Shown here one piece after another: positions 3,917-31,933 of a stretch of 64,000 nt of DNA. Within the stretch, counting starts at the first letter, position 1; the number at the start of each line of letters is the position of its first letter. Both the position numbers and the translations under genes were made by a program. The stretch is from a virus, in the IMG/VR virus record IMGVR_UViG_3300045988_160113, positions 71,791 through 135,790 of that record. The stretch is one strand, 5' to 3'. The notes beneath the pieces were generated by a model. It had not been told where the DNA came from. It saw only the letters and a program-made list of their open reading frames with translations, and did not search any database.

Positions 3917-4794
3917 AAATTACATTTCTCCTTTATATAATTATAGTTTATTTTATCAAAATCTGTATATGGGATTTCTATAAGTGGGATATTATTTTCT
4001 TTACAATATTCTTTTTTCATATTATCAGAATTTTCTTTATTCCACAAATTATTTTTATCATAATGTTGTTCACCTTGATATTCAATTAGACAATATAACT
4101 TATTATCAATAAAAATAGCAAAATCAAAACGTAATGGATATATATTTTTTAGTTCTTGAAAAGAAAATTGTGTTTTGTAAGAAATATTATTTTTTTGTAA
4201 AATAGATAATATTTTTTGTTCTCCTTTAGAATTCATACAACCACAACTTTTTTTCGCTCCAGAGCATAATCTGCTAGTTGTAGATGAAGTAATATTACCA
4301 CAATCACATTTACATTCCCAAATACTTTGTTTGTTTTTATCTTGTCCTATTTTTCTTATTACTACTAATTTTCCAAAACGCATATTAGTAATATCTTTTT
4401 CTACACATTTTTTGTAAAAATTTTCTTCTCTTAGACAACCGCAAGATTGTGTTTGCCCACTATGTAATCGTGAACTAACTACGGAACAAATATTGCCACA
4501 ATCACATTGACAAATCCATTTTATTTTTTTATCGTTAGATAGTTCTATATCTTTTTTTATAACAGTTAGTCTTCCGTATCTATTACCAACTTCAGAACAA
4601 TTTTTACAATCTTTACTGGTTCCTTTTGTTAAACATTGAGTATTTACTTCTTTTTCGTTGCCACATTCGCAACGACATAACCATTTTCTATTTCCTTTAT
4701 ATTCTATAACTGTCCATTTGCTATTTTCTACTCCATGTTCTTTCATAACCCAACCAGTCATATCTATAAAATTATGAGGTCTTTTAGTTTTCAT
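3913..4794 (-). CDS. Cys-rich zinc-ribbon-repeat protein with C-terminal PD-(D/E)XK-like domain
   Basis: Three W.C.C.CGN...SCGC repeats. C-terminus reads PLRFDFAIF...IEYQGEQHY. No GCGCGC sites, as in the HEGs. Confidence 0.5.
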   Translation of the reverse strand: MKTKRPHNFIDMTGWVMKEHGVENSKWTVIEYKGNRKWLCRCECGNEKEVNTQCLTKGTSKDCKNCSEVGNRYGRLTVIKKDIELSNDKKIKWICQCDCGNICSVVSSRLHSGQTQSCGCLREENFYKKCVEKDITNMRFGKLVVIRKIGQDKNKQSIWECKCDCGNITSSTTSRLCSGAKKSCGCMNSKGEQKILSILQKNNISYKTQFSFQELKNIYPLRFDFAIFIDNKLYCLIEYQGEQHYDKNNLWNKENSDNMKKEYCKENNIPLIEIPYTDFDKINYNYIKEKCNL

Positions 4795-8980: not shown

Positions 8981-11554
8981 ATGGAAAGCACGATTGAACT
9001 TTCAGTTCTAAAAAAAGAAATCCATTTTGTAAAGAAAGACAGTCTCACAACTGGACAACAAAGAAACTCCATGAAAATATCTTTCAATGGAAAAGAATGG
9101 AATGGACTAACTAAGTATGGTGTGTTCAAAGTTGAAGATACTGTCAAAGATGTCTTGATTGCTAACTCTGATATAGAGATACCTGCCGAAGTTTGCACCC
9201 TTGACAATCTTGGTAAAGTGGTTTATTTTGGTATCAAAGGAACTTATACAGAGACTATTAGTGGAACGGAAACGGAAACTGTTTATACTACTCCTTATTT
9301 TAGACTTGGAGTACTTGAACGTGGTACAGAAACTTCTGGAAGTATACCAGAATATCCAACACAAAATGCCATTGATGCGGCAATTGAAAATGCGCGTAGA
9401 TGGGCAGTTGGCCCAAGTTCTACAGATAAAGTTCCTACCGATACCAATAATGCGAAATATTGGAGTGACCAAGCAAAAGTAAATGTTGAAAATGTAAATG
9501 AGTATGCTAATAAAGCAAAGGCAGAAGCAGACCGCGCAGAAACTGCGGCAAATACCGCTGTAGAAAGTGTAAAAGGTTCTGTTGAAGCCGCTGCGAAGAG
9601 CGCCCAAGAAGCGGGACAATATGCTGAGAATGCTAAGACCGCTGTAAGAGAGTATCCTCGTATTGATAGTCATGGTCACTGGGAAAGATACGACCCTGAG
9701 AGTGGTAAATGGGTTGATACTGGCGCACTAGCAGAGTTCAAGATTAGGAAAACATATAGTACTATTGCTGAAATGAATGAACATTGGAGTGATAGTGATG
9801 TTTTTGTAAATGATTTTGTAATGATTGCTGGTGAAGTTGAACCGGATAATGGCCAACTGTATGTCAAACTTGCTGATAGTAATGCTAAATATCAGTATAT
9901 TGGTGACCTTAGTGGCGCTCAAGGTATCAAGGGTGAGAGTGCTTATGATATTGCAGTAGCGAAAAAGCAGTATGAAGGCACAGAAGATGATTTTGCGAAG
10001 TTCTTGGGAGAAGCAGTAAATAATGAACCTAAGAGACAAGAAGCAGAGACTGCTCGCAATAATGCCGAAAAAAATCGTAATGATGCTGAGTCTCTTCGCG
10101 CGCAGAATGAAACGCAACGAAAGACTGATGAATCTACTCGTCTATCAAATGAGACTGCGCGCATAGCAAATGAAAAAACTCGCGGTGAAAATGAAGATAG
10201 TAGAAAAGCAAATGAAGCAGACCGTGTAGAAAAAGAGACTGCTCGTGTCAATGCGGAAAAAAATCGTAATGATGCTGAGTCTCTTCGTGTGCAGAATGAA
10301 ACACAACGAAAGACTGATGAAACTACTCGTTCTACAAATGAGACTGCCCGTGGTAATGCTGAGAAAGCTCGTAACGAAGCAGAAACTGCTCGTAATAATG
10401 CTGAATCTTCTCGCGCGACTGCCGAAACGAATCGTGATAAAGCAGAGATTACTCGCGCGCAAAACGAAGAAAAGCGAGTCAATGCTGAGTCTTCTCGTGT
10501 GACTGCTGAAGGAACTCGCGCGACCAATGAACAAACACGAATTGACACAGAAAAAGCTCGCAATGAAGCAGAGAGTAAGCGTGTGATTGCTGAAACTTCT
10601 CGTATTGAATATGAGAAAACGCGCGAATCAAATGAAAGTGCACGTGCAAAAGCAGAAATTTCACGTGCGAATGCTGAAACTAACCGTAATAATGCTGAGA
10701 CTGCTCGTAACAAAGCAGAAACCGCCCGTGATTCTGCCGAGTCTCTCCGCGCGCAGAATGAAATTCAACGTCAGTCAAATGAGACTGCGCGCGAAATATG
10801 GGAAGACTATAACCAAGATAAAACTTATTACAAGGGAAATAAGGTAAGTCTCAATGGTAATAGTTATGTTTGTGTAGTCGAATCTACTACCAATCATCCT
10901 GGTCAATCTAATGATTGGTTACTTATTGCTCAAAAGGGCGATGGACTAGTAATCAAAGATAAATATACTACAATTGAGGAACTTCGCGCGGCTAATCCTA
11001 ATCATACTTATACTTACCAAGTTGAGCAACCTAATGGTGAACTTTATATTTACTCTGATATTGCCGGTGATTGGGTATCTATTGGTGCTATCCAAGGACC
11101 GAAAGGTGAAACTGGTGATAAGGGCGATAAAGGCGACCAAGGCATTCAAGGCAAGAAAGGTGATAAAGGTGATGCCTTTACTTATGCTGATTTTACTCCT
11201 GACCAACTCGCGGCGCTCAAGGGAGAAAAAGGTGATAAAGGTGACGCTTTTACTTATAATGACTTTACTCCTGAGCAACTTGCTTCTTTGAAAGGCGAAA
11301 AAGGCGACAAGGGTGACCCTGGTTCTTATACTGCTGGTACTGGTATTAAAATTGCCAATGGTGTTATTAGTGCGACCGCGGAAGTATATAAAGCGGGCGA
11401 CGGCATTAGTATCACTAATGGATTGATTAGTGCTTTACTTGGGGCTGGCCTCAAATTTGATACTGATAAAAAAATTACTCTTGATGAAACTACTTTTACG
11501 GAATATACAGATGATGAAATTACCTCGATTTATAATTCTGTTGAAATTTCTTGA
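8981..11554 (+). CDS. Tail fibre with ~37 xxExxRx heptads and collagen-like G-X-Y repeats
   Basis: NAEKNRN/DAESLRA/QNETQRK... heptad array, GPKGETGDKGDKGDQGIQGKKGDKGD and 2x FTY.DFTP.QLA.LKGEKGDKGD. Confidence 0.8.
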   Translation: MESTIELSVLKKEIHFVKKDSLTTGQQRNSMKISFNGKEWNGLTKYGVFKVEDTVKDVLIANSDIEIPAEVCTLDNLGKVVYFGIKGTYTETISGTETETVYTTPYFRLGVLERGTETSGSIPEYPTQNAIDAAIENARRWAVGPSSTDKVPTDTNNAKYWSDQAKVNVENVNEYANKAKAEADRAETAANTAVESVKGSVEAAAKSAQEAGQYAENAKTAVREYPRIDSHGHWERYDPESGKWVDTGALAEFKIRKTYSTIAEMNEHWSDSDVFVNDFVMIAGEVEPDNGQLYVKLADSNAKYQYIGDLSGAQGIKGESAYDIAVAKKQYEGTEDDFAKFLGEAVNNEPKRQEAETARNNAEKNRNDAESLRAQNETQRKTDESTRLSNETARIANEKTRGENEDSRKANEADRVEKETARVNAEKNRNDAESLRVQNETQRKTDETTRSTNETARGNAEKARNEAETARNNAESSRATAETNRDKAEITRAQNEEKRVNAESSRVTAEGTRATNEQTRIDTEKARNEAESKRVIAETSRIEYEKTRESNESARAKAEISRANAETNRNNAETARNKAETARDSAESLRAQNEIQRQSNETAREIWEDYNQDKTYYKGNKVSLNGNSYVCVVESTTNHPGQSNDWLLIAQKGDGLVIKDKYTTIEELRAANPNHTYTYQVEQPNGELYIYSDIAGDWVSIGAIQGPKGETGDKGDKGDQGIQGKKGDKGDAFTYADFTPDQLAALKGEKGDKGDAFTYNDFTPEQLASLKGEKGDKGDPGSYTAGTGIKIANGVISATAEVYKAGDGISITNGLISALLGAGLKFDTDKKITLDETTFTEYTDDEITSIYNSVEIS
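10030..10800 (+). repeat. 21-bp (heptad) coding repeat array with an internal 81-bp duplication
   Basis: 10061-10141 vs 10250-10330 differ at 5 positions; offset is 189 bp. Confidence 0.8.
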
Positions 11555-12291: not shown

Positions 12292-13404
12292 ATGGATAAG
12301 AAAGTTTTGACCACTACGATTCAGTTGCGCCGTGCGACTGAGGTACAGTGGGAAGCTATCAAAGATAGTTTCATTCCTGCCGTGGGTGAACCTTGTGTTA
12401 CTCTTGATGGTGATAATGCTGGCCAATTAAAAATTGGTGATGGTGTTACTCCTTGGGGTGAACTAAAATATTCTGGTGTTCATCTTGATGTACTCAAGAT
12501 ATATGGTGATTCCGTAGAAGATACTTCTATGTTTATTGACGGTGTAAAGTATGATACTGCCGCAGAAGCAATCAATGCTGTTCCTGATGGTGGCACTGTC
12601 AAAATGACTGGCGGTCTCGGTGCAGATGAAATTATCAATGTAGAAAAAAAACTCACTCTCGATATGAATAGTGCGGTTATTGTTGATAATAATAAATGTC
12701 CTATGGAAATTAGCACTAGTGGTGAACTTACTTTGTCTGGTAATGGTAGTGTTGAGTGTAATAAGAACGCTGAACCTGCTATTAATAACTGCGGCAAGAT
12801 GATTATTGAAAATGGTAATTATACTCGTAAGGTTGATGAAAAGAATGATACTTTCTATACTATTCTAAATCATGGTGATACCGTTATTAACAATGGTATT
12901 TTTCAAGCACCTGGTAATGTATCAAGTATGATTGAGAATGGTTATTGGGATTATAATTCTACCGACCCTAAGTATGGTCATGTTGTTGGAAAGAATGCTG
13001 AGACTTGTATATTGACTATCAATGATGGTACTTTTATCAATGCTTTTTATGTCATCAAGAATGATGATAATGGTATTGTAAACATCAATAGTGGTAAGTT
13101 CTATGGTACTATTTTCCACAATGGTATTGAGATGACCATCAATAATGGATATTTTGAAGTTAGTGATGGAACTTACAATATTGGTCTAAGAAAGTTGAAT
13201 GACAATATGAATGCTGGTAAAACCACTATCAATGGTGGTACTTATATTTCTAATGGTACATCTAATTTCAAAATCAATGATGGCGAACCTGAAGTAATTA
13301 TCAAAGGTGGTAAATTCAATAAAGAAGTTCCCGCCAGATTTATCGCTGAAGGATATAAGCAGAGTCTTGTCGATGGTTATTATGTTATAACCAAATCTGA
13401 GTAA
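12292..13404 (+). CDS. Receptor-binding protein, probable beta-helix (depolymerase-like)
   Basis: The same N-terminal motif (TIQLRRATEVQW...GEPCV...LKIGDGVTPWGELKY), then a repetitive N/G/I-rich region. Confidence 0.6.
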   Translation: MDKKVLTTTIQLRRATEVQWEAIKDSFIPAVGEPCVTLDGDNAGQLKIGDGVTPWGELKYSGVHLDVLKIYGDSVEDTSMFIDGVKYDTAAEAINAVPDGGTVKMTGGLGADEIINVEKKLTLDMNSAVIVDNNKCPMEISTSGELTLSGNGSVECNKNAEPAINNCGKMIIENGNYTRKVDEKNDTFYTILNHGDTVINNGIFQAPGNVSSMIENGYWDYNSTDPKYGHVVGKNAETCILTINDGTFINAFYVIKNDDNGIVNINSGKFYGTIFHNGIEMTINNGYFEVSDGTYNIGLRKLNDNMNAGKTTINGGTYISNGTSNFKINDGEPEVIIKGGKFNKEVPARFIAEGYKQSLVDGYYVITKSE

Positions 13405-13789: not shown

Positions 13790-13805
13790 AGGAGGAGTGA
13801 ATATT

Positions 13806-14321
13806 GTGGCAAAATTAATCAATACTACTATCAAACTGAGAAGGGATAATGATTATAACTACAGTAAAGTAGCAGATAGTTTTATCCCCATGAAAGGCGA
13901 GCCAGTACTTGTAGATACTGAACAATATGGACTTAGATTCAAAATTGGTGACGGTGTCACTTCTTATGGTGCGCTTGCTTATGCTGATGATAATAATAAT
14001 GTAGTTTTACTTGGTTATTATCTGAATAGTAAATTTTATATTGATAGCACTTATACAGTTGAATTAGAAAAAAATGAAAATAAACTGTATATTGATAAGA
14101 ATACTTATACAGTATATATTTGGGATAAAGAGAATTATATTCCACTTAGTCCCGAAGCTACTGAAACTGTTGCGGGCATGATGAAACTTTATCAAACTTC
14201 TGGTAATAATACTGATGGTACTATGAGCCAGAAAGCTATTACTGAAGGCGTAAATGCTATCAAATTTGAATTAGATGGGCAAGATAAAGAGTGTCTTGTT
14301 CTTGACCTCCCTTGGGACTAA
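13806..14321 (+). CDS. Receptor-binding protein with Mtd_N-like N-terminal motif
   Basis: Start moved to GTG 13806 to match paralogues (MAKLINTTIKLRR...GEPVLVDTEQYGLRFKIGDGVTSYGALAY). Confidence 0.55.
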   Translation: MAKLINTTIKLRRDNDYNYSKVADSFIPMKGEPVLVDTEQYGLRFKIGDGVTSYGALAYADDNNNVVLLGYYLNSKFYIDSTYTVELEKNENKLYIDKNTYTVYIWDKENYIPLSPEATETVAGMMKLYQTSGNNTDGTMSQKAITEGVNAIKFELDGQDKECLVLDLPWD

Positions 14322-16242: not shown

Positions 16243-16431
16243 ATGGCAAAGATAAAGACAATCAAACTTCCCAATGATACCTCTGCGCGCGAAGTATATG
16301 ATGTTGGCGCAGTCAGATTTGATGAAAAAGGTAATCTGACAGAAGCACAAAAAACTATCGCGCGTGCTAATGTTGGCGTAGAAGAGTATACTGCCGACGA
16401 GATTGAGAATATTTGGAATAGTACAACGTAA
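16243..16431 (+). CDS. Mini fibre-module protein (62 aa)
   Basis: N-terminal MAKIKTIKLPNDT, QKTIARANVG motif and C-terminal EEYTADEIENIWNS. Confidence 0.5.
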   Translation: MAKIKTIKLPNDTSAREVYDVGAVRFDEKGNLTEAQKTIARANVGVEEYTADEIENIWNSTT

Positions 16432-16439
16432 GTAAATAG

Positions 16440-16461
16440 GGTGGGAGTAAATACTCCCACC
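16440..16461 (+). terminator. Rho-independent terminator candidate
   Basis: ggtgggagt-aaat-actcccacc. Confidence 0.5.
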
Positions 16462-16472
16462 TTAGTAAAAAT

Positions 16473-16501
16473 TTGACGTGGAAAGTAATTTGTGGTATAA
16501 T
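16473..16501 (+). promoter_or_regulatory. Extended -10 sigma70 promoter upstream of the DGR target operon
   Basis: TTGACG-17 bp-(TGg)TATAAT. About 260 nt of leader precede 16766. Confidence 0.6.
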
Positions 16502-16765
16502 TATTATAGTGGATAAGAAATCTGCCTGGCTTGGAATGATAGTCAGTATAGCCCTTGAAAGTGATAGGGAGAAGAAGTTGACGGACGCTGAGCCAGTGGG
16601 TGAAGTGTCTGTTTTTTTATGTATATATTATATTCTGCGCACTTGTGAATTTTTTATAAAAGAAGATAGTGATTTTTATAGATTTTATACAAGGCCACGC
16701 GTAAGGATAGAAAGAATATAAATTGGCCTGCGCGAAAAGTGTAAGAGATAATAAAGGAGGTACAA

Positions 16766-16978
16766 ATGAGTAAGAATGTGAATGCTTGTAAAAGCGACAA
16801 TACTGAAAACTGGAATAAGGCAGTAAATTTTGTGCCTTCAAAGGGAGAAGTAATTATTTACTCTGATGTTGAACAGATGAAAGTCGGTGATGGAGTAAAT
16901 AGTGTTGTCAATTTGCCATTTAAGGACAGAGAATATGAGGATAAGGAAATTGAAGAGATTTATAATTCTGTGAGGTGA
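16766..16978 (+). CDS. Small fibre-adaptor protein
   Basis: FVPSKGEVIIYSDVEQMKVGDGVNSVVNLPF (Mtd_N-like) and C-terminal EYEDKEIEEIYNS. Confidence 0.5.
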   Translation: MSKNVNACKSDNTENWNKAVNFVPSKGEVIIYSDVEQMKVGDGVNSVVNLPFKDREYEDKEIEEIYNSVR

Positions 16979-16982
16979 AAGT

Positions 16983-17732
16983 ATGGGAATTATTATGTTG
17001 AATAACAAGGTTCTGGTGAATCAGAATAAGATTGCGATGTATATACCTCCTTTTGAACCACCTGCTAAAGGTTCGATTGTAAAGATGAATTTGGATGGGA
17101 CTGAAAGACAGTATAGAGTATTGAGTGTAAATGGAAACGTTTGTAAAGTATTAGGAATGTGGGATGACTTTGCAAGCAAATATAATGAAACAAGTACAAC
17201 TACTACTTTCGGAAGCACTACTGCTCAGAAATACGAAGGTTCTACTTTAGATACCTATTTAAATACTACTTGGTATAATACATTAACTAGTGCTGCTAAG
17301 GCGGCTATTGTACCTGAGAATGTAGTACAGTATTGTTATAAATATTATGATGAACCAAATACTCCAAATACACCTACATATACATATCAATATCAGCATA
17401 ACTGGTCTAATTCAGATTATGAAAATGCCGATAATGTAGGCAATGTAACTGTTGGAGAACGTAACGTGTTTGCTTTAGATTTGAAGGATATTTTTGATTA
17501 TATGGGAAAAGTGTGTATTACATCTGATGAACTAATGATTATGTTTTGGAATAGTACAACTAAAGTATCTAAATATCTATGGTTGCGGTCCTCTCTTGCC
17601 GACTATTCTTACGGTGCGTGGATTGTGTCCGGTGACACTGGTAATTTGAGCTACACTGGTGTTGCTAATAGTTGTGTCGTGCGGCCCGCGCTTAATCTAG
17701 ATATGTCCAAAATCCAGTACACCCTCGTGTGA
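16983..17732 (+). CDS. DGR variable (target) protein, WLRS...VRPA C-type-lectin-like C-terminus
   Basis: VR lies in frame in the last 50 codons: LRSSLADYSYGAWIVSGDTGNLSYTGVANSCVVRPA. Confidence 0.85.
   Translation: MGIIMLNNKVLVNQNKIAMYIPPFEPPAKGSIVKMNLDGTERQYRVLSVNGNVCKVLGMWDDFASKYNETSTTTTFGSTTAQKYEGSTLDTYLNTTWYNTLTSAAKAAIVPENVVQYCYKYYDEPNTPNTPTYTYQYQHNWSNSDYENADNVGNVTVGERNVFALDLKDIFDYMGKVCITSDELMIMFWNSTTKVSKYLWLRSSLADYSYGAWIVSGDTGNLSYTGVANSCVVRPALNLDMSKIQYTLV
17583..17690 (+). repeat. DGR variable repeat (VR)
   Basis: 108 bp aligned to TR without gaps. 20 mismatches, every one opposite a TR adenine. Confidence 0.9.
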
Positions 17733-17739
17733 GCGGGTA

Positions 17740-17765
17740 GCTGGAGGCGCCTCAGCGCCGACAGC
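17740..17765 (+). promoter_or_regulatory. GC-rich hairpin 50 bp downstream of VR
   Basis: gctg-ga-ggcgc-ctca-gcgcc-ga-cagc. Confidence 0.5.
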
Positions 17766-17828
17766 GTCCGCGGAGGAAAATATTTTCTAAAAATTATCAA
17801 ATAACATTTTATAAGGAGATTTTATTCA

Positions 17829-18203
17829 ATGGCTGAATTCAATCTTATCAATCGTGCAGAAAATATGGTTGACTATTTATTAACAATTACAGATAAAGCA
17901 CCTAAAAAACTTCGCTCAGATATTATCCCAGAACTTCGTAGAGCAAGTTTCAAATGTATTCAAGCAATCATTAAAGCTAATAATTGTCCACTTGACAAAA
18001 CTCAACCTTATTATACTGAACTTAGAAAACAATACCAACTTGAAACTAAAAGTTTTCTTCAAACAATTAGTGCTTATTCTGAGATTTGTATGAAGCATAA
18101 CTACATTACTAAGAAACAATTCGATGTACTAAACGACCATATTTTCAAATGTCAAGATACCCTTATAAAATGGATGACTTCAGATGAAAATCGTTTGAAG
18201 TAA
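17829..18203 (+). CDS. avd: Accessory variability determinant (Avd, four-helix-bundle family)
   Basis: 124 aa, helical. Carries ...TDKAPKKLRSDIIPELRR...AIIKAN. Sits between target and TR. Confidence 0.75.
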   Translation: MAEFNLINRAENMVDYLLTITDKAPKKLRSDIIPELRRASFKCIQAIIKANNCPLDKTQPYYTELRKQYQLETKSFLQTISAYSEICMKHNYITKKQFDVLNDHIFKCQDTLIKWMTSDENRLK

Positions 18204-18215
18204 CAGGTATATAAC

Positions 18216-18323
18216 TTGCGGTCCTCTAATGCCGACAATTCTAACAATGCGTGGAATGTGAACGGTAACAATGGTAATTTGAACAACAATGATGTTACTA
18301 ATAGTAATGTCGTGCGGCCCGCG
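18216..18323 (+). repeat. DGR template repeat (TR)
   Basis: 32 adenines. Reads as AAT/AAC-rich codons (N at the variable positions). Shares the 3' GTCGTGCGGCCCGCG with VR. Confidence 0.9.
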
Positions 18324-18470
18324 ATTAGGAAATAAAACAAAGATTTGTTTATAGTAACATGGGTTCTATACAATATCTTTTTTCTAAGGAGTTATATCCC
18401 TTCTGTAAAAAGAAAAATATTACTTGTGTATGATTATATCGTAACTATGTAATCTGCACTTCTTAGGAGG

Positions 18471-19403
18471 TTGCACAAGTTGTATAAAGAAATTTTGTGT
18501 AATTTTGATAATATTTATAAAGCTTATAAAATAGCTCATAGAGGAAAAACAGATGATAAAGAAGTAATTGAGTTTGATAAAGATAAGATATATAATTTGA
18601 AAAAATTACAAGAAAAACTATTGAATAAACAATGGGATGAAATATTTACCTATTATAGGTTTGTAATTACCGACCCGAAGAAAAGAACTGTTGATGCTTT
18701 ACATTTTGAAGGTAGAATAGTTCAACACGTTCTTTGTGATTTGATATTGAGACCTTACTTTGAAAGAAGATTGATAAAGGAAAATGCGGCTTGTAGAATA
18801 AATAAAGGAACTGAGTACGCAGTGAATTTATTGAAAAAAGGTATTATTGAATATTATAAGAAAAATGATGACGGTTATGTTCTTCAAGCCGATGTTCATA
18901 AATATTTTCCAAGTATTGATAGAAAGAAATTGAAGGAGATAATTGATTATCCAAATAAAGAGATTTTAGAATTGATTCATTGGATTATTGATTGCGCGCC
19001 TGGCAATGGTATTCCTATTGGTAATCAGTCTTCACAATGGTTTGCTTTATATTATTTGGATAAAATTGATAGAATTATCAAAGAGAAGTATAGATGTAAG
19101 ATTTATGTCAGATATATGGATGATTTGATAGTTATAGATAAAAGTAAAGATAAACTAAAAAGAATTTTAGGTGATATTATACGAATCGGCCGAGAATTCG
19201 GATTGGAATTCAATGGAAAGACGCAAATATTCCCGCTAAGAAAAGGAATTTGTTTTTTGAGTTGGAAGTTCATTAGAAAAGAAAATATAATAAAACTGTT
19301 GAATCCAAGAAAGAAGTCAGGGAAAATAAAGAAGATAAAAGAAATTTTCAATGAAGGACCTGATAAGTTTGGGAGCGTTTTCAGTCTATGCGCGCCTACT
19401 TAA
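18471..19403 (+). CDS. DGR reverse transcriptase
   Basis: IPIGNQSSQWFALYYL (the SQ hallmark) and YVRYMDDLIVI (YMDD). TTG start after aggagg. Confidence 0.9.
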   Translation: MHKLYKEILCNFDNIYKAYKIAHRGKTDDKEVIEFDKDKIYNLKKLQEKLLNKQWDEIFTYYRFVITDPKKRTVDALHFEGRIVQHVLCDLILRPYFERRLIKENAACRINKGTEYAVNLLKKGIIEYYKKNDDGYVLQADVHKYFPSIDRKKLKEIIDYPNKEILELIHWIIDCAPGNGIPIGNQSSQWFALYYLDKIDRIIKEKYRCKIYVRYMDDLIVIDKSKDKLKRILGDIIRIGREFGLEFNGKTQIFPLRKGICFLSWKFIRKENIIKLLNPRKKSGKIKKIKEIFNEGPDKFGSVFSLCAPT

Positions 19404-19473
19404 GATTAGGAAACACTTACTATTTTAGAAAGAAAAGACTGATATATAATTATATATAAAGGAGGTCACCTAT

Positions 19474-20292
19474 ATGAAATATGTTGGCGAAAATGCCCTC
19501 AAAAAATGGACTTCATTAGTCAAGTCCGACATAAAGAAAAAACTCGACAAAAACCAAGGCACTGCTAATTCTGGCAAAATTCTTGGTGTCAATGCGACTG
19601 GTGAAGTTGCACCTACTGATACTGAGGTTGCTACTCTGGTGGACGTCCCCAATGGGATTGTAAAGGGAGATGGGAGTACACTGAGTGCGGCAGTAGCAGG
19701 GACGGACTATATGGCTCCAGTTACCGGTGGTTCTTCCGGTCAAGTGCTGACGAAAACCGCCGATGGGCAGGAGTGGGCAGACGCGGCGGGGGGCGATGTG
19801 TTCTGGATTCACGCGACGTTGAGCGGGGCTACCGTTACCGCAGACAAAACCCCCAGCGAAGTCAAAGAAGCAATGGTAGCTGGGAAATTATGCCTTTTGG
19901 ATATTGGTTTTCCATATCCAACATTGGTTGGAGGCGATGTGCGGAATGTGTCGGGTATTCCTCAAAGCATAATATTTACAGCAGTTAAAGAGAAAAGTAA
20001 GGATTCAGAAGCAGGAACAGTCTACTCAGTGACATGCAGTTTTACAGTCGATGCATGGCAGGCTCTCACAAAAACCATTATCCCAAGAATACCTATACCG
20101 AATAGCTCCAACGAGGGCAAATTTGTAAAATCGATCTATGATGATGGTGACGAGGCGTATTATGCACGCTGGCAACCCATCGCCCCCTCCGACATCGGCG
20201 CTATCGCAAGCGGCAACATCGTCAAGCAGACGCTTGTGAACGTTGAGACCACGCCGACCGAGAACTACGCCATCAACTGGCTGTTCGGCTAA
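19474..20292 (+). CDS. Tail-fibre protein, chimeric (AT-rich 5' end, GC-rich remainder)
   Basis: N-terminus ...GIVKGDGSTLSAAVAGTDYMAP. Composition switches near 19640. Confidence 0.6.
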   Translation: MKYVGENALKKWTSLVKSDIKKKLDKNQGTANSGKILGVNATGEVAPTDTEVATLVDVPNGIVKGDGSTLSAAVAGTDYMAPVTGGSSGQVLTKTADGQEWADAAGGDVFWIHATLSGATVTADKTPSEVKEAMVAGKLCLLDIGFPYPTLVGGDVRNVSGIPQSIIFTAVKEKSKDSEAGTVYSVTCSFTVDAWQALTKTIIPRIPIPNSSNEGKFVKSIYDDGDEAYYARWQPIAPSDIGAIASGNIVKQTLVNVETTPTENYAINWLFG

Positions 20293-20302
20293 GGAGGCGC
20301 GC

Positions 20303-21433
20303 ATGGCTACATTTACTGTAGAGATAACGCCAGATTCTAGCAACGGTACTATCGCCCACGCAGTCGGAAAGTTTTCCGGAGGGTCAAGCAGCTATAAAGG
20401 TCGGCGACGCATGAACGTTACCGTCAGCGGCGTCGGGACATTTTCTGCGTTATCGCCGGAGACAAGCGGAGGCGAAAACACTTTTTCTCTCGACATCACG
20501 GGGCTGACGCCGGGGACAACGTACAACTGGAGCGCGTCACTCTACTACAAACATACGTCCGGGGGTTGGGTGACAGCAGGATCGCAGTACGATAAATCCG
20601 GAAGCTTTACGACGAAAAGTAAAACCCCTACATTACCAAAAACGCTCGTCAACGGCACTGCTTACGACGTTAAGGGCGGGAAGTGCCTCGTCAACGGCAC
20701 GGTGTACAATATCCTCAAGGGCAGGACGCTTATCGGCGGGACGGGGTATGATATTGCGCTGTCGAGCGCGGGGACAAAGATTGAGACGCTGAACGTGGGA
20801 CAATCAGTATATGCAAATGTTGGTGGCGTGCGCAAGGAATTCATCGTTGTCCATCAGGGCAAGCCAAGTTCTTTGTACGATGATTCCTGCAATGGCACTT
20901 GGCTGTTGATGAAGGATATCTACGAGAATAGGCAGTGGAACAGTTCCGATTCCAACGTATATGAAACCAGCACGGTCAACACTTACCTTAACGGGCCGTT
21001 TCTTGGGCTGTTTGACTCTAACATTCAAGGGATTATCAAACAGGTCAAGATACCGTACCGCAAAGGTGGCGGCAGCGGCACTGACCAGTCCGGCGCAAAT
21101 GGCCTGTCCGCGAAGATATTTTTGTTGTCTGGTTACGAAGTAGGCTGGACGACCAGCAACCACGAGTTGTTCCCACAGGATGGCGCGAAGCTGTCCTACT
21201 TTGAGTCTGGGACCGGCACGTCCGCCAACAAGAAGCGCATTGCGTACCTGGACGGCTCGGTCGCCATCTGGTGGCTCCGCTCCCCGAACATCGGCTACAC
21301 CGACGGGGTATGGCGCATCAGCGCCGGTGGCAGCTACGACTACAACAACGCATCCCGCTCGTACGGCATCCGCCCCTGCATCATTCTCCCGTCCACTACC
21401 CTCGTGGATGACGAATTCAATCTTACCACTTAA
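20303..21433 (+). CDS. RBP paralogue of the DGR target (WWLRSP...GIRPC C-terminus)
   Basis: Start at taaGGAGGcgcgcATG. ...TVNTYLNGPF...IFLLSGYEVG...IWWLRSPNIGYTDGVWRISAGGSYDYNNASRSYGIRPC. Confidence 0.6.
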   Translation: MATFTVEITPDSSNGTIAHAVGKFSGGSSSYKGRRRMNVTVSGVGTFSALSPETSGGENTFSLDITGLTPGTTYNWSASLYYKHTSGGWVTAGSQYDKSGSFTTKSKTPTLPKTLVNGTAYDVKGGKCLVNGTVYNILKGRTLIGGTGYDIALSSAGTKIETLNVGQSVYANVGGVRKEFIVVHQGKPSSLYDDSCNGTWLLMKDIYENRQWNSSDSNVYETSTVNTYLNGPFLGLFDSNIQGIIKQVKIPYRKGGGSGTDQSGANGLSAKIFLLSGYEVGWTTSNHELFPQDGAKLSYFESGTGTSANKKRIAYLDGSVAIWWLRSPNIGYTDGVWRISAGGSYDYNNASRSYGIRPCIILPSTTLVDDEFNLTT

Positions 21434-21445
21434 AGGAGTGAAACT

Positions 21446-22246
21446 ATGTCAACTTACATCAAAGTCAACAACACCGAATACCCCGCGACCATCACGGGCG
21501 AGCACAAAGACCGCACGTGGGGTGAGCGCGAGGTCAAGAACATCCGCCTGACGATGACCGCCACCGAGGCGGCGGCGCTGCTACCCGACAACACGCCGTG
21601 GAGCATCGTACAGCGCGACACCGTACCTAAGTACGATGAGGACGGCAAGCCCACGGGCGAGACCGAGGAGGTCGTCAACGAGTGGGACAACAGCGCGTAC
21701 AGCCTGAGCGGGGCGATCACCGACCACCGCGACGGCACGGTCACGGTCAAGATGGGAAAGCCCACGGAGACCGAGAGCGCCAAAGCGACCGTCACCGCCC
21801 TTGCTGGCGAGCCGGTCACATACGCCCGCGCGGTGGAGCTACGCCCCATTATCGAGCAGACAGCGGTCAGCCTGAGCGACGGCGAGGCGGCAAGCGTGCC
21901 GGAACTCATCACAGCATGGGCGTACCCCGTTGATTACGCTGAGGGCGACCGCAGGAGCTACGGCGGTAAGGTGCACAAGTGCCGTCAGGCACATACCTCG
22001 CAGGCCGACTGGACGCCGGACAAGACGCCCGCGTTGTGGGCGGTCATCGACGCCGAGCACGCGGGCACGCAGGCAGACCCCATCCCGGCAGCGCGCGGCA
22101 TGGAGTACGAGTACGGCAAGTACTACCTCGACGGCGAGGACGGCAAGGTGTACCTCTGCGAGCGCACGGGCGAGCAGGCGGGCGGCAAGATCACGCTGCA
22201 ATACCTGCCGCACGAGCTGGTGGGCAACTATTTCAAGGCGGCCTAA
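21446..22246 (+). CDS. Protein with CBM5/12-like carbohydrate-binding repeats
   Basis: YGGKVHKCRQAHTSQADWTPDKTPALWAVI plus a second degenerate copy. Confidence 0.55.
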   Translation: MSTYIKVNNTEYPATITGEHKDRTWGEREVKNIRLTMTATEAAALLPDNTPWSIVQRDTVPKYDEDGKPTGETEEVVNEWDNSAYSLSGAITDHRDGTVTVKMGKPTETESAKATVTALAGEPVTYARAVELRPIIEQTAVSLSDGEAASVPELITAWAYPVDYAEGDRRSYGGKVHKCRQAHTSQADWTPDKTPALWAVIDAEHAGTQADPIPAARGMEYEYGKYYLDGEDGKVYLCERTGEQAGGKITLQYLPHELVGNYFKAA

Positions 22247-22902: not shown

Positions 22903-23694
22903 ATGACAGAACAAAACCTGCGTAGGCTAGTAGTAGACACATTCTGTTCCTATAATGGTGCCAAACAGAATTCTACTAAACACAAAAACCTTATTGACAC
23001 ATACAACACAATTATCCCTCTTCCTCGTGGAGTGAAGATGACTTACTCCATGTCTTGGTGTGCGGCAACAGTAAGCGCGATTTCACAGAAGCTTGGACTG
23101 ACAGATATTCTTCTTCCTGAGTGTTCCTGCTCCAAAATGATTGAAGCGTATCAAAAAATTGGCCGCTGGGAAGAGCGTGATAACTATGTTCCTCAGATTG
23201 GCGACTTAGTTATGTATGACTGGCAAGATGGAAGTGATTATGTTAGTGTAGATAATACCGGTGCACCCGACCATGTTGGTATGGTGGTTGATGTGAATAA
23301 GGCTTCGAAAATGATGAGAATTATCGAAGGGAATAAAGGAACTCCATCAACTTGTGGATATCGATCACTACAAATCAATGGACGATTTATTAGAGGATTC
23401 TGTTTACCAGATTATGCAAAGGCTGCTAAGACATACAAGACAAGTTCCACTACAAAAATTGAATATTGTAGCGTAAACCTACCAGTTCTCACTCAAGGCG
23501 CGACTGGACAAACTGTAGAGACACTACAAGTTATACTGCGCGCGCTGGGATATAAGATTGATTTAGATGGTTCTTTCGGTCCTGCGACGGCGAATGCACT
23601 CAGTCAGTTCCAGAAAGGGAGTGGCCTAGCGGTTGATAAGTCCTGTGGACCTCTTACATGGACCGCTTTGATTACAGGAGGAGAATTGAAATGA
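22903..23694 (+). CDS. Endolysin: CHAP/NlpC-P60 domain + PG_binding_1
   Basis: SWCAATVS (Cys), DHVGMV (His). C-terminus DGSFGPATANALSQFQKGSGLAVDKSCGPLTW. Confidence 0.75.
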   Translation: MTEQNLRRLVVDTFCSYNGAKQNSTKHKNLIDTYNTIIPLPRGVKMTYSMSWCAATVSAISQKLGLTDILLPECSCSKMIEAYQKIGRWEERDNYVPQIGDLVMYDWQDGSDYVSVDNTGAPDHVGMVVDVNKASKMMRIIEGNKGTPSTCGYRSLQINGRFIRGFCLPDYAKAAKTYKTSSTTKIEYCSVNLPVLTQGATGQTVETLQVILRALGYKIDLDGSFGPATANALSQFQKGSGLAVDKSCGPLTWTALITGGELK

Positions 23695-24677
23695 AATACT
23701 ATGTATCTAATGGTATCAAAATTATTGAATGCGCGCCCAGTGAATTCAAAGTGGTCATGGTGAATCAACACAAGAAAAATGTGCGCAAGTCCACTTTTGT
23801 AAATGCGAATTTCTTTGCGGGTGGGCAGAAACTCAACAATGAAGTATTCACGTTACCAGTAAATCACCTTATTTGTGATTATGAAGCAAGTGGAAACTCG
23901 GAGCGGATTCGTAATGAGCAGCGTGGCACTTTCAAAGGTAATAAATATTACTATGATTCTTACTCTTACGGCGCACCCACTGACCAATTCTATCATAAAA
24001 CCTTGACTGTCTTGGCTATCAAGAACAAAAAGCCAAGCATCTTTGATATGGCTGTATTGGATAAGTCATATGAATATCTTGTTGCTGGTATTCCAGTAAT
24101 GAAGAATGGCAAGGATGTAAAGTGGAAGACTTATGTTTCTAAGCAAGGTTGGACTGGTGGTGAGCTATATGGAACCTATCACATTTTTGCTGGTTTGAAG
24201 AATGGAACTGACACTATTTACCTAATGAGTTGGAAAACTACTTCTTCAAATTTGATTTATAGTGGTGAAGCATTTAGAAGGTTCTCAGCGATGGGTTTTA
24301 GGGATGTCATCAAGCTTGATGGCGGTGGCAGTGAGATTATGAGGTATAACAATGTTACCAAGCACGCGACTGCTGAAAATCGGCAAATCAGCGCCATTAT
24401 TGAGGTAGTTGGTAAAGAAGTTGCTACAACTCCAAATCGTCCACAGAGCAAGGCTAATCCATACGCAGTCCCCACCAAGGCTCTCAAACGTGGCTCGACT
24501 GGTAATGGAGTTCGCTGGATGCAGTTCCAACTAAATAAAGCTGGATTTACTTGTTCTATTGATGGCTCTTTCGGCCCAGCAACTGAGAAGGCACTCAAGT
24601 CCTATCAATCTGCGCGCAGTCTCGAAGTTGATGGAAGCTGTGGTCCTGCTACTCGCGCGGCATTGAAGAAGGAATAA
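23691..24677 (+). CDS. Second cell-wall hydrolase (phosphodiester-glycosidase-like) + PG_binding_1
   Basis: ATGA overlap. KLDGGGSE motif. C-terminus DGSFGPATEKALKSYQSARSLEVDGSCGPATR. Confidence 0.55.
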   Translation: MKYYVSNGIKIIECAPSEFKVVMVNQHKKNVRKSTFVNANFFAGGQKLNNEVFTLPVNHLICDYEASGNSERIRNEQRGTFKGNKYYYDSYSYGAPTDQFYHKTLTVLAIKNKKPSIFDMAVLDKSYEYLVAGIPVMKNGKDVKWKTYVSKQGWTGGELYGTYHIFAGLKNGTDTIYLMSWKTTSSNLIYSGEAFRRFSAMGFRDVIKLDGGGSEIMRYNNVTKHATAENRQISAIIEVVGKEVATTPNRPQSKANPYAVPTKALKRGSTGNGVRWMQFQLNKAGFTCSIDGSFGPATEKALKSYQSARSLEVDGSCGPATRAALKKE

Positions 24678-28489: not shown

Positions 28490-28563
28490 GGCACTGTAAC
28501 CCAATTGGCAGAGGTAAATCACTCAAAATGATTGAAGTATGAATTCGAATTTCATCAGTGCCA
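28490..28563 (+). tRNA. tRNA, anticodon CAA (nominally Leu) but with a short variable loop
   Basis: Hand fold: acceptor ggcactg/cagtgcc, anticodon arm aatca-CTCAAAA-tgatt, T arm atgaa-ttcgaat-ttcat, CCA encoded. Confidence 0.6.
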
Positions 28564-28662
28564 CCATAAAGAATTTGGGATAGAGCAGAAAAGCGCACCT
28601 GCTTGATAAGAGTAACTCCCTCTTCCCTTATTCTTATCTTATGGAGTTAGTAAGGAGTAAAA

Positions 28663-29364
28663 ATGGAAGAATATGGCATATTTCAAATTCTTGAAAAGTT
28701 AGATGAAAGAGATAAATATCATCATCAATTATGTCGTATTAGATGCAAATATTGTGGAAGAGAATTTATTCGAGCATATAGTCAAGTAAAAGCTCCGTCT
28801 TCTTACACAACGGTTTGTAACCATAAAAGGAAAAATGGTGAAGATGTTCAGTATGGGATACACTGGAAAAATTCTCGTATAAGAAGTATTTATGCTGGAA
28901 TTATATCTCGTTGTTTCAATGAGGAGGATAGAGATTATCGTTTTTATGGAGCAAAAGGGGTTTCTATTTGTAAAGATTGGCAAGAGAATCCTTTACATTT
29001 TGAAGATTGGGCTTTAGCTAATGGTTATAAAGATAATCTAACTATTGATAGAGAAGATGAGACTAAAGATTATTCACCTGATAATTGTCGATGGATAACA
29101 GGAGAAGAAAATGCTCGTTGGAAATCAACAACAAATCGAATTGATGTTGATGGAGAAATAAAAACTGGACAGCAATGGGCTAAATATTTGGGTTTTGGTC
29201 CAAATCTTATAAATAGTTATATTAGAAAATATGGATGGGATAATACTGTAGAATTTATTCGTCGTTATAAAGCACATCCATATCAAGGATTGCTACCTCA
29301 TAAAACAAGTTATTATTCTATGTATATGTCTGATAATTATAAAAAGGAGAACAATAATGAATAA
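28663..29364 (+). CDS. HNH_3/AP2-like homing-endonuclease-family DNA-binding protein
   Basis: FYGAKGVSICKDW...LTIDREDETKDYSPDNCRWITGEENARW. Confidence 0.5.
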   Translation: MEEYGIFQILEKLDERDKYHHQLCRIRCKYCGREFIRAYSQVKAPSSYTTVCNHKRKNGEDVQYGIHWKNSRIRSIYAGIISRCFNEEDRDYRFYGAKGVSICKDWQENPLHFEDWALANGYKDNLTIDREDETKDYSPDNCRWITGEENARWKSTTNRIDVDGEIKTGQQWAKYLGFGPNLINSYIRKYGWDNTVEFIRRYKAHPYQGLLPHKTSYYSMYMSDNYKKENNNE

Positions 29365-29572
29365 TTATTCCTACTTTATTGGCGATCGTGTTTTTGTAAA
29401 GGATTATGGTGTTGGAACTATCACCAAGATTGACGAGAAGTCGCGTGACTTCACCTATTTCGTCCGTTTCAAGGGACACGCAAGAGGCTGGTTCCCTGAG
29501 TATCGTCTGAGCGAGTATGTGGAACCAGTTGTGAAGGTAGAATCTTCTGATGAGGAAGTATCTACCCTGTAA
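29357..29572 (+). CDS. Hypothetical protein
   Basis: ORF track. Confidence 0.45.
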   Translation: MNNYSYFIGDRVFVKDYGVGTITKIDEKSRDFTYFVRFKGHARGWFPEYRLSEYVEPVVKVESSDEEVSTL

Positions 29573-29593
29573 ATCCATTATCGACTAACTTTT

Positions 29594-29657
29594 CGCGGCC
29601 TTGTGTAAATTGCTTCATTTATAGATAGATTTTTTGGTAAATTTATACAAGGCCGCG
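29594..29657 (+). other. 18-bp-arm inverted repeat
   Basis: cgcggccttgtgtaaatt ... aatttatacaaggccgcg (one G-T). Loop is 28 nt. Confidence 0.6.
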
Positions 29658-29700
29658 ATAAGAGTTTGCTCTGCGCGCAGAATGTGAGAAAGGAGTAATT

Positions 29701-29907
29701 ATGACTTGCCTTGAACATTTGATTGAGAACACTCTTGATAGTTTCAGTAAACGAAAACCCGTCCAAGAAATCTGTGATAGAATTAGAGAAGATGTAAATT
29801 TATCTGGCTCTGGTCTTACTGTTGAGCAGTGTTATGAAATTTGTCAGTTCATTTTTTACGATGTTCTTCCCTATTCTAATTATTATTTAGAAGATAACAG
29901 ATACTAA
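29701..29907 (+). CDS. Hypothetical protein
   Basis: ORF track. RBS lies within CTGCGCGCAGAATGTGAGAAAGGAG. Confidence 0.45.
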   Translation: MTCLEHLIENTLDSFSKRKPVQEICDRIREDVNLSGSGLTVEQCYEICQFIFYDVLPYSNYYLEDNRY

Positions 29908-29910
29908 AAT

Positions 29911-29939
29911 TTGATTTTTCTCAAAATTTCTGCTATAAT
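29911..29939 (+). promoter_or_regulatory. sigma70-type promoter
   Basis: TTGATT-17 bp-TATAAT. Confidence 0.65.
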
Positions 29940-29970
29940 ATTTATAGAAAGTTGAGAGGAGATACATAAA

Positions 29971-30189
29971 ATGAATACCTTGAATTTTGGTGAATTTTAC
30001 AATGAACTCGATGAGAGTGGTAATTCCACTGGTCGTGTCTATAAATGCATTGGTATCGCCGCAGATTATTACCAGACTGGTGAGGAAGTAGTTCTTATGG
30101 CTCGTATTGGTGATGGTGGCTATTCTAATGGTTTGCTTTATATTCCTGTTGGAGATTTCATGGTAGATTTCGAGGAGATTCGAAAATGA
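29971..30189 (+). CDS. Hypothetical protein
   Basis: ORF track. Confidence 0.45.
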   Translation: MNTLNFGEFYNELDESGNSTGRVYKCIGIAADYYQTGEEVVLMARIGDGGYSNGLLYIPVGDFMVDFEEIRK

Positions 30190-30386
30190 ATGAAGATTAT
30201 GTAAAGGGAGAAATGTTAGAAAATTTCTCCAATTCTAACAAAAATCCAGACTATCCTATTATTTGGAGCGATACTGTATGGGAAGATATGAATGTTCCTA
30301 TGTCTTGTCGAATGTGCAGTAATCATCCTATCAATGGTGGAAGTGGAATTTGCTGGTGCGTTCTCGGAGTTCCAGAAATTAGGTAA
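30186..30386 (+). CDS. Small Cys-rich protein
   Basis: ORF track. Confidence 0.45.
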   Translation: MNEDYVKGEMLENFSNSNKNPDYPIIWSDTVWEDMNVPMSCRMCSNHPINGGSGICWCVLGVPEIR

Positions 30387-30392
30387 ATAAAT

Positions 30393-30464
30393 ATGGGCGT
30401 GGTGTAATTGGTAGCATAATAGTCTCCAAAACTATTGGTTTTCGTTCAAGTCGAAACGCTCATG
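30393..30464 (+). tRNA. tRNA-Trp (CCA)
   Basis: Hand fold: atgggcg/cgctcat, atagt-CTCCAAA-actat, tttcg-ttcaagt-cgaaa, CCA encoded. Confidence 0.7.
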
Positions 30465-30567
30465 CCATGCCACGGCGTCGTAGTGTAATTGGCAACACGG
30501 TGCGTAATAAATAAAAGGAAAGGGTAATAAAAGGAAGAGAGGTATTTTATTTTATGGAGTGGTAGTA

Positions 30568-31347
30568 ATGAAAAAGATTGGTATTTATAAAATTATAAAT
30601 ACGGTGAATGGGAAAATTTATGTTGGTCAGTCTATAAATATTTATGACAGATGGACACAGCATAAGTATAAAAGTATCTATTCTGAAGAATTGGGGTATA
30701 ACTCCGCAATTCATGCTGCAATGAGGAAATATGGTTTTGAAAATTTTGTATTTGAAATTATTGAAGAATGTGAACCGGAATTATTAGACGAAAGAGAAAG
30801 ATATTGGATTGAAAAATTGAATTCTTTGACTCCAAATGGTTACAATATCATGCCTGGAGGACAGAAAAATAAAAGAATAATTCATAGATGCTGTGATTGT
30901 GGAGCGATAATTAGCAAAGGTGCGAAAAGATGTGAAAAATGTGCTCATAAAAATCAAGAAAGAGCAAAAAATCCTTTTGAACCTTTGGAATTAGCAGAAG
31001 AAATTAAAGAAAAGGGCTTTGAAGCTTTGGGCAAAGAGTATGGGTATACAAATGGGCGCCCTATAAAAAAATGGTGTAAGCAACTTGGTTTACCAGTGTA
31101 TAAAGAAGAAATTATTAAATGGTATGATGAACAAATGGGGATAAAACCTCCTGAAAAAGTTCAAAAAAAGAATAAGGAAAGGCCAGTTTATAAAATAGAT
31201 TTACAAACAGGAGAGATTTTAGAAGTTTTTTCAAGCATAGCAGAAGCAGCAAGAAGCATTGGAAAAAAGAAAGGTAACCATATTACAGAGGTTTGTAAAG
31301 GAAAATTTCTTTCTGCTTATGGCTATGGGTGGAAATATGTAGAATAA
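30568..31347 (+). CDS. GIY-YIG homing endonuclease (I-TevI-like)
   Basis: GIYKIINTVNGKIYVGQSINIYDRWTQH...RERYWIEKL...NGYN, followed by a Zn-finger/HTH tail. Confidence 0.85.
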   Translation: MKKIGIYKIINTVNGKIYVGQSINIYDRWTQHKYKSIYSEELGYNSAIHAAMRKYGFENFVFEIIEECEPELLDERERYWIEKLNSLTPNGYNIMPGGQKNKRIIHRCCDCGAIISKGAKRCEKCAHKNQERAKNPFEPLELAEEIKEKGFEALGKEYGYTNGRPIKKWCKQLGLPVYKEEIIKWYDEQMGIKPPEKVQKKNKERPVYKIDLQTGEILEVFSSIAEAARSIGKKKGNHITEVCKGKFLSAYGYGWKYVE

Positions 31348-31349
31348 AT

Positions 31350-31420
31350 GTCGTATTGGTGTAATGCTAGCATAAGACACTTCCAATGTCTTGGTGGCAG
31401 TTGGAATCTGCTATACGACC
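31350..31420 (+). tRNA. tRNA-Gly (TCC)
   Basis: gtcgtat/atacgac, agaca-CTTCCAA-tgtct. T loop ttggaat. Starts 3 nt after the HEG stop. Confidence 0.65.
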
Positions 31421-31525
31421 CCATCGTCACACACTCCGTGACGAAAATTCTCTTTCCCCCCTTTCCTTTGCCCTGGCAGGCGGCATTATAGTCTGCTTTC
31501 CCCCTCAATAGTAATATATATATAT

Positions 31526-31599
31526 GGAGCAGTAACTCAGTTTGGTAGAGTAGCGGTCTTTTAAGCCGTCTGTCGGGTGTTCGAATCACCTCTGCTTCA
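31526..31599 (+). tRNA. tRNA-Lys (TTT)
   Basis: ggagcag/ctgcttc, gcggt-CTTTTAA-gccgt, gggtg-ttcgaat-cacct, CCA. Confidence 0.75.
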
Positions 31600-31605
31600 C
31601 CATAC

Positions 31606-31902: not shown

Positions 31903-31933
31903 CCATTTGAAATTCATTATAAAGATGACGCTA

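Follow-up and report, generated by a model that had tools for sequence, protein, structure and literature searches.

Gut phages are well known to carry diversity-generating retroelements (DGRs) that vary their C-lectin-like receptor-binding proteins (PMC10743442, PMC11792537, PMC8008677). The DGR of BPP-1 is organized as mtd-avd-TR-brt (AY029185), that is, a target gene, an accessory gene and a template repeat (TR), followed by a reverse transcriptase (RT). The spacer of its RNA holds a priming A, a cPRT Stop, a Thumb Ring and a stem that binds the RT, bRT (bioRxiv 10.1101/2023.10.23.563531). In Quimbyvirus the RT is spread over three frames and 22 adenine sites varied, and Benler et al. judged that element to be active (PMC8008677). 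Here we describe a DGR in 64,000 nucleotides of phage DNA, positions 71,791 to 135,790 of the IMG/VR record IMGVR_UViG_3300045988_160113 (hereafter the window). The locus is a genuine, canonical BPP-1-type DGR with a complete layout and a DUF6273 protein as target. The DGR is demonstrably active in the phage lineage. In this genome it has probably been inactivated recently by truncation of the RT thumb, which would leave the variable repeat (VR) of the target gene frozen at one receptor-binding variant.

The features of the locus and its surroundings are listed in Table 1. A first-pass annotation, made from the letters of the window, had described a complete, apparently active DGR. Its identification of the element, its list of parts and the order target-avd-TR-RT are all upheld, with a TR-RT spacer of 156 nt. 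The layout is complete and the element is active in the lineage, but the RT of this genome is frameshifted and its VR is apparently frozen.

Table 1. Features of the DGR locus and of the surrounding phage DNA, in window coordinates.
Feature	Position	Strand	Remarks
Homing-endonuclease genes	625-1719, 3913-4794, 37240-38067		
857-aa protein with tail-fibre matches	8981-11554		Upstream of the DGR
Sigma-70-like promoter match, extended -10	16473-16501	+	TTGACG-17-TATAAT, TG before; 11/12 consensus positions
Structured leader RNA	16508-16620	+	Minimum free energy -33.5 kcal/mol, z = -3.5; 0/200 shuffles fold equally well
70-aa open reading frame (ORF) with Mtd_N-like motif	16766-16978	+	Pfam Mtd_N E = 2e-4, under the curated cut-off
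DGR target gene, 249 aa, DUF6273	16983-17732	+	Pfam PF19789 E = 1.9e-13, residues 73-240
VR core	17583-17690	+	Target codons 201-236 (of 249)
VR, extended repeat	17583-17694	+	112 nt
IMH-like (initiation of mutagenic homing) GC-rich VR end, GTCGTGCGGCCCGCG	17676-17690	+	Same letters at the TR end, 18309-18323
GC-rich inverted repeat	17740-17765		GCTG-GA-GGCGC-CTCA-GCGCC-GA-CAGC; DNA fold
avd accessory gene, 124 aa	17829-18203	+	pI 9.0; PHROG 3206 'Avd protein of DGR' E = 1.1e-9, residues 2-122
TR, non-coding	18216-18327	+	32 adenines, mostly AAY in the target frame
TR-RT spacer RNA, 156 nt (3' part of the DGR RNA)	18324-18479	+	Conserved secondary structure
RT gene, frameshifted allele, 307 aa (native 326 aa)	18480-19403	+	IGNQSSQ, YMDD
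1-nt deletion site, T3 (T4 in relatives)	19368-19370	+	AAGTTTTGGG -> AAGTTTGGG
Out-of-frame remnant of the native RT C-terminus (WERFQSMRAYLRLGNTYYFRKKRLIYNYI, then stop)	19370-19459	+	DNA same as in intact relatives
Second DUF6273 gene	20303-21433		After the RT; PHROG 'Hoc-like head decoration' 1.3e-55
CBM_5_12 gene	21446-22246		After the RT
Endolysins	22903-24677		

The VR core aligns without gaps to positions 18216-18323 of the TR over 108 nt, as first described. We count 18 mismatches in this alignment, not 20 as the first-pass annotation did. All 18 lie opposite one of the 32 TR adenines in these 108 nt (hypergeometric p ~3e-12), which bears out its claim that the mismatches are confined to TR adenines. 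The repeat is longer than the core, and a further mismatch at 17691 again faces a TR adenine (19/19). In every case the mismatch is at position 1 or 2 of a codon in the target frame. Read in that frame the TR gives LRSSNADNSNNAWNVNGNNGNLNNNDVTNSNVVRPA, with N at 15 codons, and the VR gives LRSSLADYSYGAWIVSGDTGNLSYTGVANSCVVRPA, exactly as translated before. When the TR with each A replaced by N was used as a search pattern, two copies were found in the window, the VR and the TR, and none in shuffled sequences. Since the VR differs from the TR at 18 sites, homing took place in the past.

Both repeats close on the common GC-rich, IMH-like end that had been proposed, GTCGTGCGGCCCGCG, and homology is gone 4 nt beyond it. 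The GC-rich part is identical in VR and TR (IMH and IMH*), and divergence follows 1-5 nt further on, a variant described by Wu et al. (PMC5758913). No variable sites were found within or past GTCGTGCGGCCCGCG, and the A-site differences end upstream of it.

Variation among relatives follows the same pattern. Homologues of the target number 1366; identity is 78-100% for the best 120, whose contigs reach 136 kb. In an alignment of these 120, the AAY-templated codons have an entropy of ~3 bits and 11-16 residue types each, whereas the scaffold positions between them (W, G, L, S, V, RP) hardly vary. The mean entropy of the target is 1.62 bits in the VR and 0.37 bits outside it. Hypervariable templated codons in a near-invariant scaffold show that the DGR is clearly active in the lineage. 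Two close relatives, L001 and L002, have identical cassettes and TRs and differ at 22/108 VR positions. Among the window, L001 and L002, 29 VR positions differ, 28 of them at TR-A sites. The TR sequence is the same in L001, L002, L088, L089 and L090. The megahit contigs with an intact RT (L097, L098, L099) end exactly k nt upstream of the first variable VR site (127 nt for k127, 119 nt for k119), as is expected of a de Bruijn graph when a sample holds several VR variants. By their record names (gut.metagenome, Hadza) the relatives come from the human gut; the phages are ~135 kb.

Three further observations concern the repeats. Target codon 230 (17670-17672; AGT in the TR, 18303-18305) is Ser in 112/120 homologues; its first position is templated by a TR adenine, and hypervariable AAT codons lie next to it. 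This constancy despite a TR adenine points to strong purifying selection on one templated adenine. More contigs with an intact RT break at the VR or the TR (L093-95, L101, L102). In the frameshift lineage the 135-kb contigs are continuous through the VR.

The RT gene of the window differs from those of L001 and L002, which are 97.1% identical to the window over 6.7 kb, at a single point: one T is gone from a run of four. The native RT of 326 aa ends in ...PDKFWERFQSMRAYLRLGNTYYFRKKRLIYNYI. The RT of the window ends in ...PDKFGSVFSLCAPT after 307 aa, counted from TTG 18480, and the last 29 native residues (298-326, WERFQSMRAYLRLGNTYYFRKKRLIYNYI) are exchanged for GSVFSLCAPT. As the DNA of the remnant tail is the same as in the relatives, the mutation is recent. 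The same 307-aa protein is encoded on seven contigs from ENA, Logan and JGI, in three distinct places: ERZ19693459 (the same as the window), SRR11649986 and SRR27975523.

All close homologues of the RT are 324-341 aa long. In alignments of 32 and 55 DGR RTs, at 42-95% identity, four positions of the lost tail (S303, L308, G311 and T313, an S..L..G.T motif) are at least 90% conserved, and they align with the C-terminus of Brt. In an AlphaFold2 (AF2) model of the intact allele, the thumb helices span residues 276-290, 294-308 and 314-320. A frameshift after residue 297 thus leaves only the start of the second helix and nothing of the third. In bRT the thumb touches the template:primer duplex, the cPRT Stop and the Thumb Ring RNA (bioRxiv 10.1101/2023.10.23.563531).

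The three frameshift genomes were compared pairwise over 3.6-3.8 kb. Outside the VR they differ by 11-24 substitutions and one gene swap, in which a 486-aa DUF6273 gene replaces a 376-aa one downstream; the VR is identical (0/108). Eight of the differences are transitions in the leader, two sites belong to the target gene, and a cluster falls in the gene that comes next. Two pairs with an intact RT behave differently: L091 and L092, with 30 differences outside the VR, differ at 22/108 VR positions, and L096 and L099, with 11 (four of them in the rest of the cassette), differ at 26/108. The intact groups L093-95 and L096-98 show no differences over ~4 kb, in or outside the VR (0/108). Being 100.000% identical, each is the same strain and uninformative as a control.

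An invariant VR together with a truncated RT speaks against the claim of an active element as far as this genome is concerned. From the two we infer a loss of activity, with the 1-nt deletion in the T4 run as its probable cause: without its last 29 residues the RT would be disabled and the VR would stay as it is. We found no second RT in the window that could complement the broken one.

Several points weigh against this reading. The comparison is small: the frameshift genomes number three, and the intact pairs that are informative number two. The contigs with an intact RT that are 100% identical over 4 kb (L093-95, L096-98) have a common VR as well. The core cassette is identical among the frameshift genomes, so they may have separated very recently, and some of the divergence in their flanks looks recombinational. 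The intact RT of a co-infecting relative could act in trans. Quimbyvirus has a frameshifted DGR RT and still diversifies (PMC8008677). An AF2 model of the target (pLDDT, predicted local distance difference test, 37) is too poor to bear out the predicted C-type-lectin fold.

Alternatively, the DGR of this genome may be fully active, which we regard as rather unlikely. The 307-aa RT would then work as it is, or its C-terminus would be restored by -1 frameshifting or slippage at AAG-TTT-G, and the common VR would reflect clonal spread or strong selection for a successful variant. A working 307-aa protein is favoured by the intact catalytic core and the intact residues tied to adenine mutagenesis, but two of the three thumb helices and the S..L..G.T motif conserved at 90% or more are lost. 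The remnant C-terminus, with DNA as in the intact relatives, can be read one frame over, yet AAGTTTG, read directly, does not fit the X-XXY-YYZ pattern of a slippery heptamer, and transcriptional slippage takes a longer run than T3. The past homing recorded in the 18 VR/TR differences and the Quimbyvirus RT, split over three frames in an element whose VRs vary (PMC8008677), are both consistent with activity. With the core cassette of the frameshift genomes otherwise identical, perhaps little time has elapsed; still, the VR has no differences despite 11-24 substitutions and a gene swap, where the intact pairs that differ do so at 22-26 VR positions.

One could also speculate that the change from T4 to T3 is a selected and in principle reversible off-switch, thrown after a successful receptor-binding variant had arisen. 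We hold this to be doubtful. If true, natural populations would be polymorphic for DGR-on and DGR-off alleles, and the intact and truncated alleles would provide a ready natural experiment on the last two thumb helices of the RT.

The missing T might instead be a sequencing or assembly error, with the real RT an intact protein of 326 aa. The change does sit in a homopolymer, and several of the 135-kb contigs may share one sample (five contigs, two samples). Against an error, the identical 307-aa product recurs on all seven contigs across ENA, Logan and JGI assemblies and in three different runs or samples with differing flanks, and short-read platforms are generally not error-prone at a T4 run. 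An artefact is therefore very improbable.

The RT itself is clearly of the DGR type. It carries both hallmarks pointed out in the first-pass annotation, IGNQSSQ and YMDD, and is far closer to bRT than to group II or retron RTs. IGNQSSQ fits [LIV]GxxxSQ, the motif by which DGR RTs differ from the group II and retron version. The gene had been placed at 18471-19403. Its start is most likely TTG 18480, which follows the ribosome-binding site AGGAGG (18465-18470) and is used by the gene callers of three sources, and the stop at 19403 is not native but results from the frameshift. The best match among PDB sequences is bRT (8ub7_A), at E = 2.8e-33 with phmmer against 1.8e-8 for the best group II RT. 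With a profile these values become 2.3e-58 (8ub7) and 2e-19. An alignment to BPP-1 Brt with hhalign spans 305 columns at 100% probability and E = 1.1e-43. Modelled with AF2 (pLDDT 94.5; predicted TM-score, pTM, 0.88), the intact allele has 8ub7_A as its top Foldseek match, with TM-scores of 0.85/0.84 over 328 columns. Arg74 and Ile181 of bRT (R74 and I181) reportedly have a role in adenine mutagenesis. Equivalents of R74, D138, I181 and D215/D216 are all kept in the RT described here. The residue numbering of 8ub7 (D138, D215, D216) agrees with that of the bRT paper (bioRxiv 10.1101/2023.10.23.563531).

Hidden Markov model searches bear out the DGR family for the RT, and Avd models match the accessory protein. 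We also examined 83 loci (L001-L083), namely three close relatives and 80 IMG/VR loci with related RTs. An A-biased TR/VR pair, detected with a simple finder of our own, lies beside the RT in 62 of them. NCBIfam has no DGR-RT model, and its top models are therefore those for group II, Drt3a and retron RTs; all NCBIfam matches fall far short of the cut-offs (71 bits against 300, 56 against 200, 40 against 235). That the locus is no DGR at all, holding instead a retron, group II intron or defence RT beside a chance or recombinational repeat, is suggested by these far sub-threshold NCBIfam models and is next to impossible given a bRT match better by >20 orders of magnitude, the mismatch pattern of the repeats, population hypervariation that follows the TR adenines, and an Rfam search of 16300-19600 that at E <= 1 returned nothing, group II intron and retron RNAs included.

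The predicted Avd, placed by the first-pass annotation between target and TR, is matched by the Avd models of three libraries. Besides the PHROG match, the protein scores E = 3e-6 with NCBIfam DivGenRetAVD and E = 1.9e-4 with Pfam bAvd, in both cases under the curated cut-off. An hhalign comparison with Bbp7 of BPP-1 is colinear over 104 columns and weak (E = 0.0019, probability 14%). Searches of the PDB with the single sequence and with a profile gave nothing significant; the best matches, at E 0.2-0.9, were to the pentameric helical proteins 2rld and 2gsc.

Secondary structure is conserved in the spacer that separates TR and RT. From seven lineages RNAalifold predicted 30 pairs, of which 22 still pair after changes on both sides. 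A long-range stem, ACTTGTG (18422-18428) with CACAAGT (18474-18480), encloses a hairpin at 18432-18454 and covaries in the relatives (ACCGTGTG/CACACGGT, ACTCATATG/CATATGAGT and AATTATAAA/TTTATAATT). In position it is similar to the stem that bRT binds in the BPP-1 RNA, and it may be the equivalent of that stem. The 3' arm of this stem overlaps the TTG start codon of the RT, and the Shine-Dalgarno sequence AGGAGG lies inside the loop that the stem closes. Based on these positions, folding of the DGR RNA may limit translation of the RT.

The inverted repeat listed in Table 1 lies ~50 nt after the VR and just beyond the stop codon of the target. A GC-rich inverted repeat downstream of the VR is present in about a third of DGRs. 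Six divergent relatives (L004/L085, L005, L006, L086, L087) have a strong hairpin at the equivalent place with unrelated sequences, which indicates that the structure and not the sequence is conserved. It may act as a cruciform or as an RNA element.

By analogy with BPP-1, a transcript of the 3' end of avd, the TR and the 156-nt spacer would fold and be bound by the RT and a pentameric Avd. Reverse transcription would then insert nucleotides at random opposite the TR adenines, and the cDNA would replace the VR, starting at the GC-rich IMH and aided by the downstream hairpin. The outcome would be a DUF6273 receptor-binding protein recoded at 16-18 AAY-templated positions.

We suggest that the target is a C-type-lectin-like receptor-binding protein, given that DUF6273 has been modelled as C-lectin-like (PMC10743442) and that the gene lies beside tail-fibre genes. 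Neither the single sequence nor a profile of the target matched a PDB sequence. An AF2 model from the 120-sequence alignment is unusable (pLDDT 37) because the aligned sequences are all at least 78% identical. BPP-1 Mtd was tried as a relative and rejected, the hhalign probability of 4.6% being meaningless.

Upstream of the target, the 70-aa ORF with the Mtd_N-like motif ends 4 nt ahead of the target ATG and adjoins the target in all relatives. Its orthologue in L100 has an unmarked Mtd_N match. The N-terminal motif (...GE.V...D......K.GDG.....L.) is common to the ORFs at 12292-13404, 13797-14321, 16243-16431 and 16766-16978. With the motif in a separate ORF, an N-terminal docking piece and a variable C-lectin-like domain that are fused in BPP-1 Mtd appear to be split here.

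The cassette was said to have its own extended -10 promoter at 16473. The site is a consensus match, and a hairpin at 16440-16461 closes the upstream gene just before it. The leader that follows folds into three hairpins, the last of which (16580-16613) is terminator-like and followed by U7, ~110 nt past the promoter-like site. The consensus match thus stands, but with a terminator-like hairpin downstream the promoter is a candidate for driving the cassette. The leader may act as a small RNA or as an attenuator gating the target operon, and may or may not belong to the DGR. It has no match in Rfam. The leader of the window (16511-16741) has eight differences to L001, L002 and L089, all transitions; none is in the terminator-like hairpin and no informative compensatory changes were found among them. 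L089, a genome with the frameshifted RT, has the leader allele of the genomes with an intact RT.

The DGR had been placed among receptor-binding genes. The nearby tail-fibre-type and DUF6273 genes agree with this, and together with the CBM_5_12 and Mtd_N-like neighbours they support a receptor-binding setting. The second DUF6273 gene and the CBM_5_12 gene form an island (20243-22246) of 52-61% GC in a phage of ~35% GC. In relatives the downstream DUF6273 slot holds differing genes of 369, 376, 428 or 486 aa. The island appears to be a receptor-binding cassette that recombines and was acquired by horizontal transfer. No TR for the second DUF6273 gene was found in the window. Also present in the window are a DNA ligase and an RNA ligase/tail-fibre attachment catalyst. 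Seven tRNA genes and a RAGATH-33 RNA (129.9 bits, gathering score 120.4) are located at 28490-32006 and 35396-35523.

A search of GenBank phages with the cassette and 24.5 kb of neighbouring DNA gave only short chance-level matches. No close relatives were found in IMG/VR by TR/VR pattern or RT, where the relatives from a profile scan are at most 61% identical. As DGRs of this kind are well documented, the element adds one more ~135-kb phage lineage without a close relative among GenBank phages or in IMG/VR. What makes the locus useful is its pair of alleles: on one side an intact RT with a VR that is re-randomised and assemblies that are broken at the VR, on the other an RT minus two thumb helices with a VR identical across samples. 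With this pair, the need for the C-terminal thumb in mutagenic homing can be tested cheaply and directly. It should be noted that the TR/VR pattern alone would rate this copy as complete and active, which is a caution for DGR finders.

Compared with BPP-1, the locus has the same order of target, avd, TR, spacer and RT, a small basic Avd between target and TR, and a TR-RT spacer of similar length (156 nt here, 144 nt in BPP-1). The native RT of 326 aa has the same fold end to end as the 328-aa RT of BPP-1 (TM 0.85), with the equivalents of R74, D138, I181 and D215/D216 kept. Adenine-only mismatches, a GC-rich IMH-like VR end and a GC-rich inverted repeat downstream of the VR are also common to both. 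Unlike BPP-1, the locus has as its target a 249-aa DUF6273 protein in which no sequence similarity to Mtd is detectable (hhalign probability 4.6%), and the Mtd_N-like piece is a separate 70-aa ORF. The VR is 108 nt here and 134 nt in BPP-1, and its end lies 42 nt from the stop codon as opposed to 5 nt. Further differences are the identical GC-rich ends of VR and TR, the position of the inverted repeat ~50 nt after the VR, and the frameshifted RT of this genome.

With the gut-phage DGRs that have DUF6273/C-type-lectin targets (tentaclins, PMC10743442; Faecalibacterium prophages, PMC11792537) the locus shares a DUF6273 target, AAY-templated VR sites rich in Tyr, Ser, Asp, Arg and Gly, more DUF6273 genes nearby and relatives in human-gut metagenomes. 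It differs from them in having a single VR. In tentaclins the VR domain is N-terminal and Ig domains come after it (PMC10743442), whereas the target here is a single domain with a C-terminal VR and is closer to the 234-294-aa 'target2' proteins of the same study.

Quimbyvirus (PMC8008677) resembles the present case in its interrupted RT frame and in that VRs were compared among near-identical genomes. The comparison had the opposite outcome, since the frameshift genomes described here are without VR variation. Here, moreover, the frameshift is a rare allele, and the normal RT of the lineage is a single ORF of 326 aa.

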